Assembly (NCBI GenBank): GCA_034928085.1
Contig: JAYFPG010000022.1
Location: 51,456 to 115,455, forward strand
Reading direction: 5' to 3'
From: Paludibacter sp.
Lineage (GTDB): Bacteria; Bacteroidota; Bacteroidia; Bacteroidales; Paludibacteraceae
DNA: 64,000 nucleotides
The notes under the pieces are model-generated. The model was not told the origin of the DNA. It worked only from the letters and a program-made list of their open reading frames with translations, and searched no databases. A program made the translations under genes and the position numbers. Below, piece by piece: positions 37,406-44,928 of this stretch. Each line of letters starts with the position of its first letter. Within the stretch, counting starts at the first letter, position 1.

Positions 37406-38263
37406 TTATCCTAAAATGATATTTCCTTCTTCATCTTTCAGCCCTTCGAAACTCTTGATGTATTGTTCCATCGCGCGGTAACTCATACCCATGCTGGAGT
37501 ATCCACCGTCATGGAAAAGGTTTTGCATAGTAACTTTTTTAGTAAGATCGCTGAACATGACCACGCAATAATCGGCACACTCTTCAGCTGTTGCATTACC
37601 CAGCGGTGACATGCGATCTGAGAAGTCAACCAAACTATCGAAGCCTTTAATCCCACTACCTGCTGTTGTTATGGTCGGAGATTGTGAGATAGTGTTGATA
37701 CGTACATTGTGTGCGCGGCCATAGATATAGCCAAAACTTCGGGCTATTGACTCCAGCATCGCCTTGGCGTCCGCCATGTCGTTGTAGCCATACATGGTAC
37801 GCTGTGCTGCTCCATATGACAGTGCAAGCACTGAACCCCAATCGTTGATGGCATTCTTTTTATAAGCTATCTGCAATATTTTATGGAAGGAAATAGCGGA
37901 TATATCCAGTGTCTGATTTAATAAGTTGTAATCTAAATCATCATAAGTGCGCTTCTTACGAACGTTGGGCGACATACCAATGGAATGCAAAATGAAATCG
38001 ATTTTTCCACCTAATGCTTCCATTGATTGATCAATAACCTGTTCCAAATCTTCCACGCTGGTTGCATCGGCCGGGATGAGTTTAGCATTTAGTTTTGCTG
38101 CTAATTCTTCAGTTGTACCCATTCTGATAGCCAGGGGCGTGTTCGATAGAGTGATTGTCGCTCCTTCTTCCACACAGCGCTCTGCTACTTTCCAGGCGAT
38201 GGACATGTCGTTTAATGCCCCGAAAATAATACCTTTTTTACCTTTTAATAAATTATTACCCAT
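37406..38263 (-). CDS. fabI: Enoyl-ACP reductase FabI
   Basis: GIIFGALN..SIAW; HSIG; Y..M..AKA.LES; RINTISQSP; GENL-like MQNLFHDGG. Confidence 0.92.
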   Translation of the reverse strand: MGNNLLKGKKGIIFGALNDMSIAWKVAERCVEEGATITLSNTPLAIRMGTTEELAAKLNAKLIPADATSVEDLEQVIDQSMEALGGKIDFILHSIGMSPNVRKKRTYDDLDYNLLNQTLDISAISFHKILQIAYKKNAINDWGSVLALSYGAAQRTMYGYNDMADAKAMLESIARSFGYIYGRAHNVRINTISQSPTITTAGSGIKGFDSLVDFSDRMSPLGNATAEECADYCVVMFSDLTKKVTMQNLFHDGGYSSMGMSYRAMEQYIKSFEGLKDEEGNIILG

Positions 38264-38371
38264 GTTATTCGTTTTAGTTAATCCTTTCTAAGTAACCAAT
38301 TAATACCTGAAATTGTTTAGGAAGGATGAAAATTCGGCACAAAATTACATAAAATGTGCAATATTCGCAAC

Positions 38372-39433
38372 TTATGCCTTCATTATTTCCATTTGGTGAC
38401 GTACCGATTCTTCGTGAATGGCGACTAAAACGGCTTTCATAAACTCCGAATGCATGCCCATCTTTTCAGCCTGAGAGATGCGTTTCTGCAGAATCTCATC
38501 ATATCGTTGTTCCTGTAAAATCGGCATGTTGTGCTCCTTCTTATATTGACCTATTTCTTCTGAAATGCGCATGCGTTTGGCTAATAACTCAAGTAAATCA
38601 TTGTCACATTCGTCAATCTGCCGACGCAATGCCGATAGGTTTTCAGTTGTTTGATGAGCATCCCGAATAACCAGGGTACTTAATATGAAGTCCAATACGG
38701 CAGGGGTAACCTGTTGAGTAGCATCGCTCCATGCTTTCTCCGGATTTACATGGGTTTCAACAATTAATCCGTCGAAATTTAAGTCCATTGCCTGCTGGCA
38801 AAGTGGCGCCACCAATTCTCTTTTTCCACCGATATGACTCGGATCACAAATGATGGGAACTTCCGGCATTTGCCGGTGTAACTCAATGGGGATATGCCAT
38901 TGCGGCAGATTCCGGTAAATCTTTTTGTCGTAGCTGCTGAAACCGCGGTGAATAGCCGCGATTTTTCGTACACCAGCATTATACACGCGTTCGATAGCGC
39001 CAATCCACAGATCTAAGTCCGGATTCACCGGGTTCTTGATTAATACCGGAATGTCTGTTCCTTCGAGTGCGTCAGCAATTTCCTGTACAGCAAAAGGATT
39101 GGCAGTGGTACGGGCTCCAATCCAGATCATGTCCACATCGGCAGCAAGGGCTTCGCGTACGTGCTTGGCGGTAGCAACCTCTGTGGCGACATACATGCCC
39201 AGCTCTTCTTTTACTCTTTTCAACCAGGGGAGTCCCTCGGCTCCGATGCCTTCGAATCCTCCGGGTTTAGTGCGGGGTTTCCAGATGCCTGCTCTGTAAA
39301 TCTTGATGCCTAATGCATTCAACTGTCGGGCGGTTTCCATGACTTGTTCTTCTGTTTCTGCCGAGCAAGGACCGGCAATAACCAGCGGACGCTTTGCGTC
39401 GATGCCGGGAAGTAAAATTGATTGTAATTCCAT
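38372..39433 (-). CDS. aroF: Bifunctional DAHP synthase (class I-beta) / chorismate mutase
   Basis: IAGPCSAE, KPRT, IGART, DPSH (DAHP synthase); C-terminal LRRQIDECDNDLLELLAKRM...R (AroQ chorismate mutase). Confidence 0.9.
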   Translation of the reverse strand: MELQSILLPGIDAKRPLVIAGPCSAETEEQVMETARQLNALGIKIYRAGIWKPRTKPGGFEGIGAEGLPWLKRVKEELGMYVATEVATAKHVREALAADVDMIWIGARTTANPFAVQEIADALEGTDIPVLIKNPVNPDLDLWIGAIERVYNAGVRKIAAIHRGFSSYDKKIYRNLPQWHIPIELHRQMPEVPIICDPSHIGGKRELVAPLCQQAMDLNFDGLIVETHVNPEKAWSDATQQVTPAVLDFILSTLVIRDAHQTTENLSALRRQIDECDNDLLELLAKRMRISEEIGQYKKEHNMPILQEQRYDEILQKRISQAEKMGMHSEFMKAVLVAIHEESVRHQMEIMKA

Positions 39434-39451: not shown

Positions 39452-39641
39452 ACAAAAGGCACAAAAGGAAGACTAAGGAAACACAAAAGACAATTATTTT
39501 AATCGATTTTGCTGTTTATTTACTCATTCCATTTTATCCATATGTGATATTAGTTTTTAGTCTTTATTATTGATTCAGTTTTTATTAAATTATTACAGAA
39601 AAACTTTTGTGTTTCATTAGTCTTCCTTTTGTGCCTTTTGT
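39452..39641. mobile_element. MITE-like element with 38-bp terminal inverted repeats
   Basis: 39452-39489 acaaaaggcacaaaaggaagactaaggaaacacaaaag is the reverse complement of 39604-39641 with one mismatch; AT-rich 114-bp interior. Confidence 0.7.
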
Positions 39642-40798
39642 TGTTCATGAAGAATTCTTTGTAATGCCTCCGCCAACATTCCCTCCGGACAACACAGCGA
39701 TATGCGCACATACCGTTTACCCTTGTCACCAAAAATGAACCCGGGGGTGATAAAAACATTTTTTCCGTACAGTATTTCATCTGCCAGTTCTCCTGAATCT
39801 TTGTATTTCTCAGGAATTTTAGCCCAGATGAACAAGCCTACCTGTTTGGTGTCGTACGCACAACCCAGTGTATCCATGATTTGTAAAGCCAATATGCGTC
39901 TTTTGGCGTAGACAGCATTCATTTCATCGTGCCATGCTTTCGTGTTTTGCAGGGCTTTAGTTGCAGCCACCATCATAGGCTTGTACATCCCTGAGTCAAC
40001 ATTCGACTTTACTTTCAGTATCCACTGTATAAATTCGGCATTGGTTGCCAGCATTGCCATACGCCATCCGGCCATGTTATGCGATTTGCTCATGGAGTTC
40101 AGTTCGATGCAGATATCTTTAGCGCCGGGAACTGAAAGGATGCTCAATTTATCATCATTGAGAATGAAACTGTAAGGATTGTCGTTACAGATAACTATGC
40201 TGTGCTTTTGTCCGAATGCGACCAATTTTTCAAACAGCTCCATGCTGCCATTGGCGCCGGTCGGCATATTCGGGTAATTCACCCACATGAGTTTAACGTT
40301 TGACAAATCCATTTGTTCGAGCGCCTCGAAATCGGGTTGCCAGTTGTTTTTTTCATCCAAATCATAACTGATGATATTTGCTTCGCAGATGCGACTGGCT
40401 GATGTGTAAGTCGGGTAACCCGGGTTGGGTACCAATACGCTTTCCCCGGGGTTTACAAATGCTAAGGTGATGTGCAGGATACCTTCCTTGGAACCGATAA
40501 GCGGTTGTATTTCGGTCGCGGGATTTAATTCTACACCGTACCATTGTTTGTACCAGGCAGCAAAACCGTTGCGTAACTCCGGTATGCCTACATAACTCTG
40601 GTAACCATGTGTATCTGGTTTTTGAGCTTCGGCACAGAGTGCTGCTATTGTCTCTGCGGATGGCGGCAGATCCGGATTTCCTATCCCCAGGTTAATAACC
40701 TTTTTTCCTGCTGCATTCATTTCAGCCACTTCCCGCAACTTTTGCGAGAAATAATATTCTGAAACAGTATTTAATCTATTGGCGGGTTTGATGTTCAT
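39617..40798 (-). CDS. PLP-dependent class I/II aminotransferase (probably aromatic/prephenate, from context)
   Basis: NLGIGNPD, NPGYPTY, NYPNMPTG, DNPY, SMSKSHNMAGWR, GFIFG...YVRISL; lies between pheA and aroF. Confidence 0.88.
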   Translation of the reverse strand: MNIKPANRLNTVSEYYFSQKLREVAEMNAAGKKVINLGIGNPDLPPSAETIAALCAEAQKPDTHGYQSYVGIPELRNGFAAWYKQWYGVELNPATEIQPLIGSKEGILHITLAFVNPGESVLVPNPGYPTYTSASRICEANIISYDLDEKNNWQPDFEALEQMDLSNVKLMWVNYPNMPTGANGSMELFEKLVAFGQKHSIVICNDNPYSFILNDDKLSILSVPGAKDICIELNSMSKSHNMAGWRMAMLATNAEFIQWILKVKSNVDSGMYKPMMVAATKALQNTKAWHDEMNAVYAKRRILALQIMDTLGCAYDTKQVGLFIWAKIPEKYKDSGELADEILYGKNVFITPGFIFGDKGKRYVRISLCCPEGMLAEALQRILHEQQKAQKED

Positions 40799-40859: not shown

Positions 40860-40906
40860 GCGCAAGCATTGCGCCCCTACAGTTATTCACTATTCGCTAT
40901 TCGCTA
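40860..40906 (-). repeat. GTAG-type REP-like palindrome plus heptamer tandem repeat
   Basis: Minus strand reads TAGCGAA-TAGCGAA-TAGTGAA-TA (40884-40906), then GTAG-GGGCGCAA-TGC-TTGCGC (40860-40880). Confidence 0.55.
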
Positions 40907-41746
40907 CTCCGGCGTCTTTCCTTCCTGATACTCGCCCAACAATTGAAAATCCTTCAATAACGGCCTGACAGCATCCAACGATTGACGGTAACGTTCGTAA
41001 TTGTCAAAAGTCAGGCTGATGTAAAACTGGTATTCCCATTCTCTTCCAACAATGGGCAGGGATTGAATCTTGGTCAGGTTTACGCGGTAAAACGACAAGA
41101 TCGAAAGCACTTTGGCCAGACTTCCTTCTTCGTGTGGAAGTGTGAATACCATTGATGATTTGTTTAGTTTGATATGCTGAATCATTTTTTCAGCCAGTTC
41201 TGGTGCAGCTACAATCAGAAAACGGGTAAAATTCCGTTTGTTTGTCTCAATTTCATCCGCGATGATTTCAAGCCCGTATTTCTCAGCGGCAAACCTGCTA
41301 CAAATGGCTGCTCTTCCCATGATGTTGTTTTCTGCAATTTCTTTAGCTGAAAGGGCGGTGTCATCACTTTCCACTGCCCTCAGGTGATGATGCTTATCAA
41401 TAAATTCCTCACATTGCATCAGGGCAATGGGATGGGAGTGTACCTCCTTTATATCATTGATACTTTGTCCGGGCATCGCGGCAAGTGTATGGGAAATCCG
41501 GAGTTTATGCTCCCCGATAATTACATTTCCGCTTTCTTTTAAAAGATTGTGGTTCTGCAGTAAGCTTCCGGCTATGGTGTTCTCTATGGCAACAATCCCG
41601 AGAAGTTCAGGGTCTTCAGCCATTTTGCTGAAAACATCTCTGAATGTTACACAGGGTTCAATCTCAATCGCTTCAGCTTTGAAGAATTCCCGCGCTGCAA
41701 TTTCATGAAATGCACCACTTACACCTTGTATTGCTATTCTTTTCAT
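40904..41746 (-). CDS. pheA: Prephenate dehydratase (PDT + ACT domain)
   Basis: IAIQGVSGAFH, IENTIAG, SHPIALMQC, NFTRFL, LTKIQSLP. Confidence 0.93.
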   Translation of the reverse strand: MKRIAIQGVSGAFHEIAAREFFKAEAIEIEPCVTFRDVFSKMAEDPELLGIVAIENTIAGSLLQNHNLLKESGNVIIGEHKLRISHTLAAMPGQSINDIKEVHSHPIALMQCEEFIDKHHHLRAVESDDTALSAKEIAENNIMGRAAICSRFAAEKYGLEIIADEIETNKRNFTRFLIVAAPELAEKMIQHIKLNKSSMVFTLPHEEGSLAKVLSILSFYRVNLTKIQSLPIVGREWEYQFYISLTFDNYERYRQSLDAVRPLLKDFQLLGEYQEGKTPE

Positions 41747-41759
41747 ACTTGTTGATATT

Positions 41760-41793
41760 AAAAAAAATCCTGCTCATTTTGTTGAGCAGGATT
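41760..41793 (-). terminator. Attenuator terminator in the pheA leader
   Basis: Minus strand AATCCTGCTCA-ACAAAA-TGAGCAGGATT-TTTTTT, perfect 11-bp stem, ending 14 nt before the pheA start. Confidence 0.85.
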
Positions 41794-41842
41794 CTATTCG
41801 TGTATCTTTTTATTATTAATAGTACATACAATTATCCTGCTC

Positions 41843-41893
41843 TCACCTTTTAAAGTAAAAGTAAAAATAAAAGTATGTAAAAAATCGTGTCAT
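41843..41893 (-). CDS. pheL: Phe/Tyr-rich leader peptide MTRFFTYFYFYFYFKR
   Basis: Manual translation ATG(41893)...TGA(41843): 6 Phe and 4 Tyr in 16 codons; antiterminator arm GAGCAGGAT (41834-41842) directly after the stop. Confidence 0.85.
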   Translation of the reverse strand: MTRFFTYFYFYFYFKR

Positions 41894-41912
41894 TTTCGTT
41901 TTGTTTTCGATG

Positions 41913-41920
41913 CAAAAGTA
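41913..41920 (-). promoter_or_regulatory. -7 element (TACTTTTG) of the phe leader promoter
   Basis: TAnnTTTG consensus, 20 bp upstream of the leader ATG. Confidence 0.65.
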
Positions 41921-42092
41921 ATACTTTTTCAATAAACTGCAATTTTTTCTGAAAATATTTTTTCTATTGTGGGTTCATACGGTGAATTATGCAATTTATC
42001 TATGCCTGAAATTTCAGAAAAAAGTACTTTTGGACTCAAAACACCTCAAAAGCCCTCTGTTTAAAAGGCTTTCAGTAGATTTTATTAAAAAT

Positions 42093-42136
42093 CTAACAAA
42101 GTTTTATCAAAGTTCTAACAAAGTTCTAACAAAAAA
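42093..42136. repeat. Four 11-bp tandem direct repeats (ctaacaaagtt consensus)
   Basis: ctaacaaagtt ttatcaaagtt ctaacaaagtt ctaacaaaaaa. Confidence 0.75.
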
Positions 42137-42176
42137 TGATGAAATATTAACAAAACATTACACCGTTTGACATTAT

Positions 42177-42692
42177 TTAACGCGAAAAAAGTGATAATTT
42201 TTTTATCGGAGCAAAAATTCTTTCAATTAATCTCCGGTTTTCGGTGATAATTTCTGCAGTTGCCGACAAATTTCCACTCATTTGCAGCTCCTTTTTGCTA
42301 CTTGTCACTAATTTCTCACCAATTTGTACCTCCACGAGGTAGCTTCCACGTTCCTGTGTCGGTGAAATTTGTCGGGTAATACCATTGATATGTCCAAACT
42401 CCAGGTAGGGATAAGCAGTCATTTTCAGGATTACCTGTTGACCTGACTGAATCTTACCCGCTCCGCTTGCAGGGACTTCTACGAGTGCAATCCATTCATT
42501 GTTAGTGTTTTGTATAGATGCTTCACCGCTTATAATGTCAGGGTAATTGAAAAAGAAACTGCCGGCAATGAGGATGGCCAGAATGGCACAGATAACGGAT
42601 GTTCCGTATCGGATGAGCGCCTTCGGTGGCCTGGCTAAGATTTCCTGTACCTCCCGACTCCTGAGTTCTATATTATTGCCTTCCGGATTCAT
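42177..42692 (-). CDS. Short HlyD-like adaptor lacking the central coiled-coil
   Basis: ELRSREVQEIL.RPP..LIR.G + TM + YPDIISGE N-terminus, joined directly to the GKIQSGQ.V...PYLEFG...AEIITE.RRLIERI C-terminal barrel; only 171 aa. Confidence 0.78.
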   Translation of the reverse strand: MNPEGNNIELRSREVQEILARPPKALIRYGTSVICAILAILIAGSFFFNYPDIISGEASIQNTNNEWIALVEVPASGAGKIQSGQQVILKMTAYPYLEFGHINGITRQISPTQERGSYLVEVQIGEKLVTSSKKELQMSGNLSATAEIITENRRLIERIFAPIKKLSLFSR

Positions 42693-42708: not shown

Positions 42709-44928
42709 TTACAGTTCAAGTTGGTTCTTAACTAAATGATAATAAGCGCCTTTCTTCTTTGTGAGACTTTCATGGGTTCCTGTTTCAACAATTTCCCCAT
42801 TGTCAAGCACCACGATTTGATCTGCATTTTTCACGGTGCTGAGCCTATGTGCAATTACGACGGATGTCCTGCCTTCGAAGAATCTGCCTAAGTTGTCCAT
42901 GATGATTTTCTCATTGTTCGTGTCCAATGCGTTGGTTGCTTCATCTAAAAACACGAACTCCGGATTCTTGTAAATTGCTCTGGCAATGAGGATTCTCTGC
43001 TTCTGACCCTGACTGAGCGCATGTCCTTCAGATCCAATTTTAGTATCGTATTTTGATGATAAAGTTTCGATGAAGGGTCTGATATTGGCCGTATTAACTG
43101 CGTTCAACAGCCTGTCTTTGTCTATTTCTTCGTCACCTGGTGCAATATTCCTTGCTATACTGTCGGTAAAGATGTATCCTTCCTGCATCACTACACCACA
43201 ATTTTTTCTCCATTCACGCATGTTGTAGTGTGATAAACTGTTGCTGCCCAGGAATATATGTCCCTGTTGTGGTTTGTAAAACCCCAGCAGGAGTTTCATC
43301 ATGGTAGTTTTACCACTTCCACTCATTCCCACAATGGCAGTCTGTTTCCCGGAGGGAATATGAAGGTTTATGTTTTTTAAAACGGGTTTTCCTGCTGAGG
43401 TTGTATCGTAAGCAAATGTCAGATTGTGGATTATAATGTCCTGTTTATCAGGGATGTTGTGGATCTGATCCGGATTATCTTCATCTTCATTGTCTTTGGT
43501 ATAAACCTCGCTGAGCCTTTCGATGCTAAGGCGTGCATCCTGTGACTCCCGGTAGAAGTGGATCAACTGATCAATTGGGCTATTTAGCTGGCCCAGAATG
43601 TATTGTACAGAGAGCATCATCCCCAAACTCATGTTTCCGTCAATCACAAACTTGGCAACTAAGGCAGTAATGATGATGTTTTTGGTTTGATTGATAAAAA
43701 TCGCTCCGGAATCCTGATACTGACTTAAAGCCAAACCTTTGATCCTCAGCTTGAAGAGTTTGGCCTGTATTCTTTCCCATTCCCATCTTTTCTGTTGTTC
43801 GCAGGCGTTCAGTTTGATTTCCTGCATGCCGGTAATAAGCTGAATTACATTGCTTTGATTAGCTGCTTGTTGTGCGAAGTTTTTGTGGTCGAGTGTTTCT
43901 CTTTTCTTCATAAACAGACTTACCCAAAAGAAATACAGGAGACTCCCCACTAAGAAAATCAGGAAAATTGTTACATTGTAAAACAAGAGTATTAAGGTGA
44001 ATATCACAATGTTAAACAGCCCAAACAGGATGTTCAGGGTAGAGTTTGTTAGGTAATTCTGAATGCGGGTATGGTCACCCATGCGTTGTAACAGATCACC
44101 GGTCATTTTGGTGTCGAAATAGCCCATGGGCAACCGCATCAGCTTAGCCAGAAAATCGGAAATCACCGAAATGTTGACGCGGGTTCCTATGTGCAATAGT
44201 ATCCAACCCCTGATGAATTCAACGGTTGAGGCGCTAAACACCAGAACTAACTGAGCAATCAGGACAAGATATATATAGCCTATGTTTTGTGCTGAGATTC
44301 CGAAATCTACTATAGACTGGGTGAGGAAGGGGAGTAAAAGTTGCAGCAGACTGCCAAAAAACAGTCCGAGAAACAACTGGAATATCAGTTTTTTGTAGGG
44401 TTTCAGGTAAGAAAAAAGAAATGAAAATCCTTTACTGGTATTGGTTTTGTCACTTTCTTTATTGAAAAACCCGGGAGTAGTTTCCAGCAGTAGGGCAATG
44501 CCTACATCTTCTCCGTCACTACGGGTGCTCAACCAGCAACGACAAAATTCTTCTTTGGTGTATTTCAGTTTTCCGGCTCCCGGATCTGCCACATAAATAA
44601 TATCTTTCCCGTTTTTTTCGCGGATGTCATAAACTACGACGAAATGTTGTTGGTTCCAGTGTACAATGCAGGGGAGGGGGGCTTCTTTCTTTAATTCTTC
44701 GAAGTTTACATAGACACCTACTGTACGGAAACCCAGTTTCTCAGCGGCTTCGCTGATGCCTAACAAGGAAACGCCTTCACGACTGAAGTGGGATTTTTCA
44801 CGGAGTCCTTCAAGGGAGTATTGCCTTCCATAGTGCGCTGCAATCATACGCAGGCAGGTCGGACCGCAATCCATGGCATCGTGTTGGTGGTAGAAGGGAA
44901 ATTTAGACATAGAGTTCATAATATTCAA
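42709..44928 (-). CDS. C39 peptidase-containing ABC transporter (PCAT; double-glycine peptide exporter)
   Basis: QHDAMDCGPTCL (catalytic Cys), HWNQQHFVV (His), VADP; TM domain; GMSGSGKT, LSQGQ, FLDEAT, IAHR. Confidence 0.95.
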   Translation of the reverse strand: MNIMNSMSKFPFYHQHDAMDCGPTCLRMIAAHYGRQYSLEGLREKSHFSREGVSLLGISEAAEKLGFRTVGVYVNFEELKKEAPLPCIVHWNQQHFVVVYDIREKNGKDIIYVADPGAGKLKYTKEEFCRCWLSTRSDGEDVGIALLLETTPGFFNKESDKTNTSKGFSFLFSYLKPYKKLIFQLFLGLFFGSLLQLLLPFLTQSIVDFGISAQNIGYIYLVLIAQLVLVFSASTVEFIRGWILLHIGTRVNISVISDFLAKLMRLPMGYFDTKMTGDLLQRMGDHTRIQNYLTNSTLNILFGLFNIVIFTLILLFYNVTIFLIFLVGSLLYFFWVSLFMKKRETLDHKNFAQQAANQSNVIQLITGMQEIKLNACEQQKRWEWERIQAKLFKLRIKGLALSQYQDSGAIFINQTKNIIITALVAKFVIDGNMSLGMMLSVQYILGQLNSPIDQLIHFYRESQDARLSIERLSEVYTKDNEDEDNPDQIHNIPDKQDIIIHNLTFAYDTTSAGKPVLKNINLHIPSGKQTAIVGMSGSGKTTMMKLLLGFYKPQQGHIFLGSNSLSHYNMREWRKNCGVVMQEGYIFTDSIARNIAPGDEEIDKDRLLNAVNTANIRPFIETLSSKYDTKIGSEGHALSQGQKQRILIARAIYKNPEFVFLDEATNALDTNNEKIIMDNLGRFFEGRTSVVIAHRLSTVKNADQIVVLDNGEIVETGTHESLTKKKGAYYHLVKNQLEL

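Follow-up and report, generated by a model that had tools for sequence, protein, structure and literature searches.

Attenuator leaders that carry codons for more than one amino acid, as in the thr and ilv operons, are textbook knowledge. For pheA, the gene encoding prephenate dehydratase, the classical background is the pheL-pheA attenuator of Escherichia coli (PMC3082878), which has four pairing regions, regulatory codons in region 1 and a stop codon near region 2; its leader holds Phe codons only and controls a single gene, pheA, which in E. coli encodes chorismate mutase fused to prephenate dehydratase. In the Actinobacteria, the Phe-Tyr-Phe leader of Corynebacterium glutamicum aroR-aroF (Neshat et al. 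2014, as far as summarised in PMC11802643) precedes an aromatic operon that includes 3-deoxy-D-arabino-heptulosonate 7-phosphate (DAHP) synthase. Within the Bacteroidetes, tryptophan leader-peptide attenuation has been catalogued as the Bacteroid-trp leader (Rfam RF01692; Weinberg et al. 2010, PMC2864571). Guérin et al. (2021) moreover listed a 'leader peptide attenuation element' for pheA-aspC3 of Flavobacterium psychrophilum (PMC9723704, Table S7, SI D9), where the 5′ transcribed region THC0290_N_0195 has a mapped start site and shows condition-dependent read-through, and where operon expression is highest in minimal medium. Here, we report that in a 64,000-nt stretch of a Paludibacter sp. 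contig (the window, to whose positions all coordinates refer) the minus-strand operon of pheA, an aminotransferase and a DAHP synthase-chorismate mutase fusion is preceded by a short open reading frame (ORF) rich in Phe and Tyr codons and by alternative RNA structures, which together very probably constitute a classical ribosome-mediated (leader-peptide) transcription attenuator of that operon.

The leader peptide MTRFFTYFYFYFYFKR is encoded by 16 codons, ten of which specify Phe or Tyr. Regulatory codons 4 to 14 (41884-41852) contain six Phe codons, all TTT, and four Tyr codons, three TAC and one TAT. The antiterminator 9-mer GAGCAGGAT begins at the first base past the leader stop and is followed, after an A-rich spacer of 38 nt, by an intrinsic terminator whose 5′ arm contains its exact complement, ATCCTGCTC. 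The terminator stem comprises 13 pairs around a 6-nt loop, and the pheA start codon (41746) follows 13 nt past the end of its U run. Upstream, the -7 box TACTTTTG fits the Bacteroidota consensus TAnnTTTG, and the short 5′ untranslated region CATCGAAAACAAAACGAAA is without a Shine-Dalgarno sequence (no GGAGG). The missing GGAGG agrees with what is known of translation initiation in the Bacteroidota. An original prediction, made from the letters of the DNA, had named a -7 promoter at 41913, the Phe/Tyr leader, the 9-mer directly after its stop, the complementary terminator arm, the U-tract and pheA. Each of these was recovered on the minus strand, the promoter as TAnnTTTG at 41920-41913, and the perfect 11-bp terminator that it had described turned out to be the core of a stem that G-U and A-U pairs extend to 13. 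To that description we add a hairpin between region 1, made of the Phe/Tyr codons 41879-41853, and region 2, AGG-TGA-GAGCAGGAT-AATTGTATGTA (25 pairs, -18.8 kcal/mol). The locus thus has the full set of four regions known from classical attenuators, with the 2:3 and 3:4 pairings folding at -16.0 and -18.7 kcal/mol (Table 1).

The arrangement suggests the following course of events. The transcript would begin just downstream of the -7 box, and a ribosome would translate the 16-codon leader as RNA polymerase proceeds. With Phe-tRNA and Tyr-tRNA in ample supply, the ribosome would arrive at Lys15, Arg16 or the stop codon and cover GAGCAGGAT in region 2; regions 3 and 4 could then pair, and the terminator would release the transcript 13 nt before pheA. 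When either charged tRNA is scarce, a ribosome stalled on the Phe or Tyr codons between 4 and 13 would melt the 1:2 hairpin and leave region 2 exposed; this region would pair with region 3 ahead of the synthesis of region 4, so that no terminator would form and the operon would be transcribed. If the leader were not translated at all, the 1:2 hairpin would sequester region 2 and termination would be the default. This course was examined in a footprint model in which the ribosome masks 15 nt on the 5′ side and 10-13 nt on the 3′ side of the A-site codon, on RNA that ends before region 4 is synthesised. With the A-site anywhere from codon 4 to codon 13 (five Phe, four Tyr and one Thr) the antiterminator formed 8 or 9 of its 9 pairs, whereas with the A-site at Lys15, Arg16 or the stop it formed none of the nine; without a ribosome the 1:2 hairpin formed and the antiterminator again had 0 of 9 pairs. 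What was found is a leader ORF whose codons match the operon's product amino acids, a terminator before the first gene, an exclusive 2:3 pairing that is blocked at the stop, and a 1:2 hairpin. The pheL/trpL-type logic that had been proposed for the locus is supported by this anatomy and footprint model together with the conservation and covariation described below.

Table 1. Predicted parts of the pheA leader and the genes of the aromatic operon in the Paludibacter sp. window
Feature	Positions	Strand	Details and basis
Promoter, Bacteroidota type	41913..41942	-	-33-like TTG 41942-41940, spacer 19 nt, -7 box TACTTTTG 41920-41913; predicted from sequence
Short A-rich 5′ untranslated region, 19 nt	41894..41912	-	CATCGAAAACAAAACGAAA; sequence
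Leader ORF, 16 codons + stop	41843..41893	-	MTRFFTYFYFYFYFKR; ATG 41893, coding to 41846, TGA 41845-41843
Region 1, leader codons 5-14, partner of region 2	41853..41879	-	Minimum-energy folds
Region 2	41823..41848	-	AGG TGA GAGCAGGAT AATTGTATGTA; core GAGCAGGAT 41842-41834 is the antiterminator arm
Region 3, terminator 5′ arm	41784..41792	-	ATCCTGCTC; can pair with region 2 or region 4
Intrinsic terminator (3:4)	41760..41795	-	AGAATCCTGCTCA / ACAAAA / TGAGCAGGATTTT at 41795-41764, then eight T (U) 41767-41760
pheA, prephenate dehydratase, first regulated gene	40904..41746	-	Pfam PF00800, E 8e-53
Class I/II aminotransferase, second operon gene	39617..40798	-	Pfam PF00155, E 1e-53
DAHP synthase fused to chorismate mutase, third operon gene	38372..39433	-	Pfam PF00793 + PF01817

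Both the structure and the reading frame stand out from their surroundings. The 181-nt leader folds at -42.8 kcal/mol as compared with -20.4 +/- 3.2 kcal/mol for shuffled sequences (z = -7.0), and the window holds four copies of GAGCAGGAT or its complement where 0.29 would be expected, three of them in an 80-nt stretch at this locus. No other short ORF in the 3.66-Mb genome has ten Phe or Tyr residues in a segment of 11 (the runner-up has eight), and in the long ORFs of the genome Phe accounts for 4.9% and Tyr for 4.5% of residues, together about 9%. The hairpin could in principle be merely a terminator or stabilising structure, and the ORF a chance product of T-rich DNA, since AT-rich intergenic DNA of this kind offers many TTT and TAY codons and the upstream gene ends 280 nt away. 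This is scarcely credible given the uniqueness of the ORF and given that the upstream gene, a 171-aa ORF (42177-42692) without a Pfam match, has a terminator-like hairpin of its own at 42074-42047, with the predicted promoter lying between that site and the leader; the leader is thus a separate transcription unit. Order-wide conservation and covariation in three helices, documented next, effectively refute the explanation by chance.

The conservation of the element was assessed in 80 related loci that were fetched with the pheA protein from the Paludibacteraceae, Dysgonomonadaceae, Tannerellaceae, Prevotellaceae and other families. A Phe/Tyr-rich short ORF was present 145-300 nt before pheA in 80/80 of these; four of the leaders start with GTG and one is cut by a contig end. 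A simple detector found the terminator together with a segment complementary to its 5′ arm in about 70 loci, in most of which this segment starts no more than 2 nt from the leader stop, a few having it inside a longer leader ORF. Inspection of the four loci with bulged terminators and of the four with GTG-start leaders showed the element in all, and the same layout precedes pheA in every one of the 80 loci. The TAnnTTTG box lies 14-52 nt before the leader start in 73/80 loci, with TTG or TTTG some 19-21 nt further upstream, which supports the -7 promoter of the original prediction; the position of the box also exposes the long N-terminal extensions of some ORF calls as artefacts. The arms of the switch vary between lineages in a compensated manner, as ATCCTGCTC / GAGCAGGAT, CCCGTTC / GAACGGG, ATCCCGCC / GGCGGGAT, GAGTCTCGC / GCGAGATTC and CCCACC / GGTGGG. 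Conserved F/Y-rich short ORFs and compensatory stem changes upstream of Bacteroidales pheA were what the original prediction had proposed to look for, and both were found, the former at all 80 loci and the latter in three helices.

Covariation was counted in an alignment of 60 sequences. The antiterminator was paired in 82% of cases as opposed to 35-47% when its partner was slid along the alignment, nine of its 13 pairs had changed on both sides, and none of 500 shuffles scored as high. For the 1:2 hairpin and the terminator taken together the figures were 84% and, when slid, 47-54%. In the terminator 90% of the cells were paired across the 60 sequences, with changes on both sides in 9 of 16 pairs. 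Examples in the 1:2 hairpin are columns 18:46 (UA 40, CG 11) and 21:44 (CG 45, UA 9), and in the 2:3 pairing columns 43:127 (AU 32, GC 21), 44:126 (GC 36, AU 11) and 46:124 (AU 42, GC 15), which the terminator changes match. The same three alignment positions covary in regions 2, 3 and 4, which is the signature of a switch and not of a lone terminator. Such a switch might instead answer to a factor acting in trans, be it an RNA-binding protein, a tRNA or a small molecule, with the short ORF untranslated or its translation of no consequence. The weak, sub-threshold likeness to the PyrR and PyrG leaders of Rfam (27 bits, with gathering scores of 54-65) and the indirect standing of leader translation would speak for this. 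It is nevertheless very unlikely, as none of the Rfam families matches at its gathering score, the A-rich sequence that separates region 2 from region 3 varies and lacks any conserved core resembling an aptamer, and the conserved in-frame start, the Phe/Tyr run and the stop within 2 nt of the antiterminator are features that a protein- or ligand-operated switch does not need; in one genome with a split operon, described below, leader composition furthermore follows the pathway product.

A few points weigh against ribosome-mediated attenuation at this locus. Equilibrium folding of the full leader always favours the terminator, so the decision would have to be kinetic, as in the classical cases, and the model would then depend on kinetic coupling of ribosome and polymerase in the Bacteroidota. 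Translation of a 16-codon ORF that has no Shine-Dalgarno sequence is assumed. In favour of it, assembled metatranscriptome contigs span the leader and the terminator and continue into pheA; they are few, carry neither strand nor end information and were the only RNA data found for this organism, and no pure-culture RNA-seq was found for a relative with a complete genome. The published data on the F. psychrophilum counterpart likewise lend indirect support. Directly observed are the elements in the sequence, the fact that they are unique and conserved, and covariation in the three helices; from these we infer that the leader is translated, that ribosome and polymerase are coupled and that the operon responds to Phe, and, less certainly, that it responds to Tyr.

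If the attenuator is real, it is rather likely to sense both Phe and Tyr, which is the part of the original prediction, then worded as 'dual-sensing', that stands less firmly: mixed Phe and Tyr codons are indeed present, yet the claim was read from codon content only. A Phe-only sensor, in which Tyr codons would be merely tolerated or retained because they pair in the RNA (in the 1:2 hairpin, UAC pairs with the G-U of AGG-UGA), is the less probable option, though one that has several observations on its side. The F-Y-F leader AroR of C. glutamicum responded, according to the summary in PMC11802643, to the availability of Phe and not of Tyr, transcription being raised by Phe limitation only. 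In Paludibacter, tyrA (prephenate dehydrogenase) lies elsewhere in the genome, outside the operon of this leader. An all-Phe leader, MKHFFFTSFCFFFFFFFME..., precedes pheA-aminotransferase-DAHP synthase-chorismate mutase in Candidatus Gallipaludibacter and a relative (L028 and L030), whereas neighbouring Paludibacteraceae with the same gene content have mixed leaders. Finally, the last three regulatory codons (TTT TAC TTT), which pair with region 2, are nearly invariant in nucleotides, and the 3′-most Tyr codon is TAC in 57/60 sequences; this constraint acts at the RNA level and could be explained by pairing rather than by codon identity.

Against a sensor for Phe alone, Tyr codons 7, 9, 11 and 13 all free the antiterminator in the footprint model. 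The upstream leader codons show synonymous changes (TAC/TAT, TTT/TTC) as well as Phe/Tyr swaps among the 60 sequences, and both indicate selection at the level of the codon family. Tyr codons are also kept in many families in varied arrangements. Moreover, the chorismate mutase, aminotransferase and DAHP synthase of the operon serve the synthesis of Tyr as well as of Phe. Across the 80 loci no clear relation was seen between the Tyr content of the leader and the presence of tyrA in the operon, and it is the rare genomes with a split operon that are informative here. In G326, a lone pheA (loci L162 and L164 together represent the split) has lost Tyr from its regulatory run, which is all Phe (MRRNSFRFFFFFAFFF...), whereas the leader of the aminotransferase-DAHP synthase-chorismate mutase-tyrA operon is mixed and Tyr-rich (MIKNISVFAYFYYYFYFSKK); both leaders have terminator/antiterminator pairs. 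In G430 (L163, L165) the operon containing tyrA has the leader MATQLFVYSYYFYFSWTS and pheA has none, and in G320 (L166), which is without pheA, a Phe/Tyr leader (MKVTNNNSVFYFYFFYTQIKRD) precedes DAHP synthase-chorismate mutase.

These cases fit a broader reading, in which the elements form a large, class-wide RNA family of the Bacteroidia, absent from Rfam, that would sense Phe and Tyr through interleaved codons, the mix being tuned to the products of the regulated genes: an all-Phe leader for a lone pheA, as in G326, and a mixed leader for shared or Tyr-branch genes. We consider this proposal evenly poised between right and wrong. Under it, the Tyr codons would persist in Paludibacter without tyrA in the operon because the making of Tyr still draws on the DAHP synthase, the chorismate mutase and the aminotransferase encoded there. 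Genomes with split operons, such as G326, offer a natural test of two-amino-acid sensing by mixed leaders.

The distribution of the element was approached with a covariance model built from the 60-sequence Bacteroidales alignment. In its own genome there was one strong match, the element itself (108 bits). Of 151 Bacteroidales genomes that were sampled evenly, 63 have pheA; the model matched at E <= 1e-5 in 28 genomes of the sample, nearly always directly upstream of pheA. Among 37 other pheA upstream regions, 29 had a short ORF with at least 7 Phe, Tyr or Trp in 11 residues, followed in almost every case by a terminator, and a few further regions were borderline. The element is present in about 55 of the 63 sampled Bacteroidales genomes that bear pheA. 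In a phylum-wide sample the model also matched before pheA in other orders of the class, for example with the leaders MKLFNTYYFGYFYYFSKSRG and MNNLFTYFNNFFFYFWYKMRDCYCVNLS. The Paludibacter locus shares with the pheA leaders of the Bacteroidia an aromatic-codon leader, a GGGAT-type antiterminator and an ATCCC-type terminator arm. The element provides a confident regulatory annotation for the aromatic operon of Paludibacter and of most pheA-bearing Bacteroidales, gut taxa included, and the alignment and structure may serve as the basis for an Rfam family. As a separate observation, one genome (G402:C51:12228-12509, minus strand) has two consecutive model matches (E 2e-10 and 5e-6) immediately before pheA, which look like tandem attenuators.

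Resemblance to described systems is closest in F. psychrophilum, which belongs to the same bacterial class and whose operon has the same first genes, pheA followed by an aminotransferase. There, too, a short ORF with mixed aromatic codons (MNTNNTFYSNNSFYFYWNIGRDCYMVI) is followed by an antiterminator-terminator pair (GGGATTGT / ACAATCCC) and a U run, and the GGGAT / ATCCC arms are shared with Paludibacter. The F. psychrophilum leader differs in being longer, in including Trp and in having its stop beyond the antiterminator, whereas the Paludibacter stop abuts the antiterminator and its operon is without tyrA. The F. psychrophilum element is a listing in a supplement with support at the transcript level; the covariation analysis is what is added here for the Bacteroidales copies. 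The E. coli pheL-pheA attenuator is alike in gene and layout, with no homology in sequence or structure, and differs in that the Paludibacter leader mixes Phe with Tyr and in that its operon adds an aminotransferase and DAHP synthase-chorismate mutase. The sequence of aroR-aroF is likewise unrelated, and that leader, going by its summary, has three regulatory codons only. The Bacteroid-trp leader resembles the present element as a leader-peptide attenuator in the same Shine-Dalgarno-poor phylum and differs in its Trp codons, its operon and its unrelated sequence.

Searches of Rfam at permissive thresholds over 41600-42200 yielded no family at its gathering score. Phe_leader (RF01859) scored 25.8 bits (E 0.048) with a gathering score of 55, so the element is not a member of that family, although it would work similarly. 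Sub-threshold matches to ncr1575, PyrR, PyrG, Phe_leader and Thr_leader were driven by the terminator, and none was accepted. Bacteroid-trp had no match in this interval, and its only match in the genome lies on another contig, before trpB (tryptophan synthase beta): a Bacteroid-trp-like leader at C56:8353-8481 (plus strand, L157) with 45.1 bits, the gathering score being 49, and with a short ORF MKMKHNLINTAWWWRLQNFGS, a terminator and the -7 box TATCTTTG. A genome-wide scan with strict criteria for other single-amino-acid leaders returned none that was convincing; as it also missed this Trp leader, the scan is no evidence of absence.

No description of a Bacteroidales pheA attenuator was found in the literature, in a search that did not cover all earlier comparative-genomics predictions, and an earlier in-silico prediction of the element may exist. 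The abstract of a 2004 study by Vitreschak and colleagues reportedly mentions attenuators in 'Bacteroidetes/Chlorobi'. Bacteroidetes are not mentioned by Naville & Gautheret (2010), and the leader-like short ORFs that Ryan et al. (2020) described in B. thetaiotaomicron do not include the pheA element. The term 'unannotated' in the original prediction is accordingly correct for Rfam, which has no family for the element, and too strong with regard to the F. psychrophilum listing (PMC9723704). The same prediction had singled out the sensing of two amino acids and the occurrence in a phylum that is poor in Shine-Dalgarno sequences. Such a sequence was indeed not seen, but Bacteroid-trp was already known from this phylum, and leaders for several amino acids are, as said, long familiar. 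The element is a real, strongly conserved and uncatalogued member of a well-known regulatory class, for which a pheA example had already been published from the Bacteroidia, and no new mechanism is revealed. What interest it has lies in its very clean geometry, in which the antiterminator adjoins the stop codon, in the interleaving of Phe and Tyr codons and in the persistence of the latter after tyrA left the operon. It also constitutes a well-covarying example in which transcription and translation would have to be coupled although the phylum is largely without Shine-Dalgarno sequences.

The closest relatives are Paludibacter metagenome-assembled genomes, and the order pheA / aminotransferase / DAHP synthase-chorismate mutase is kept in relatives. 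These three are followed by tyrA as a fourth gene in the Dysgonomonadaceae, Enterocola, Tannerellaceae and others. The Paludibacter group has an enoyl-ACP (acyl carrier protein) reductase in its place, and the tyrA ortholog lies on another contig (C74, locus L119:10173-10976). This displaced tyrA is about 70-78% identical to the operon-encoded copies and sits 12 nt behind the gene for a major facilitator superfamily (MFS) transporter, in a cluster that also holds tsaD and an exosortase-like gene; it has no separate leader. No obvious terminator was seen in 38264-38371, after the DAHP synthase-chorismate mutase gene. The enoyl-ACP reductase gene (37406-38263) is preceded by a TAATTTTG box that fits the -7 consensus, and may have its own promoter or be co-transcribed with the aromatic operon.

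On the upstream side, the minus strand at 42092-42133 holds about four tandem 11-nt units (TTTGTTAGAAC / TTTGATAAAAC / TTTGTTAGATT) between the stop codon of the 171-aa ORF and the hairpin at 42074-42047, with a repeat period of approximately one helical turn. Just upstream of that ORF, on the minus strand at 42709-44928, lies a gene for an ABC exporter with an N-terminal C39 peptidase domain, of the bacteriocin/peptide exporter type.

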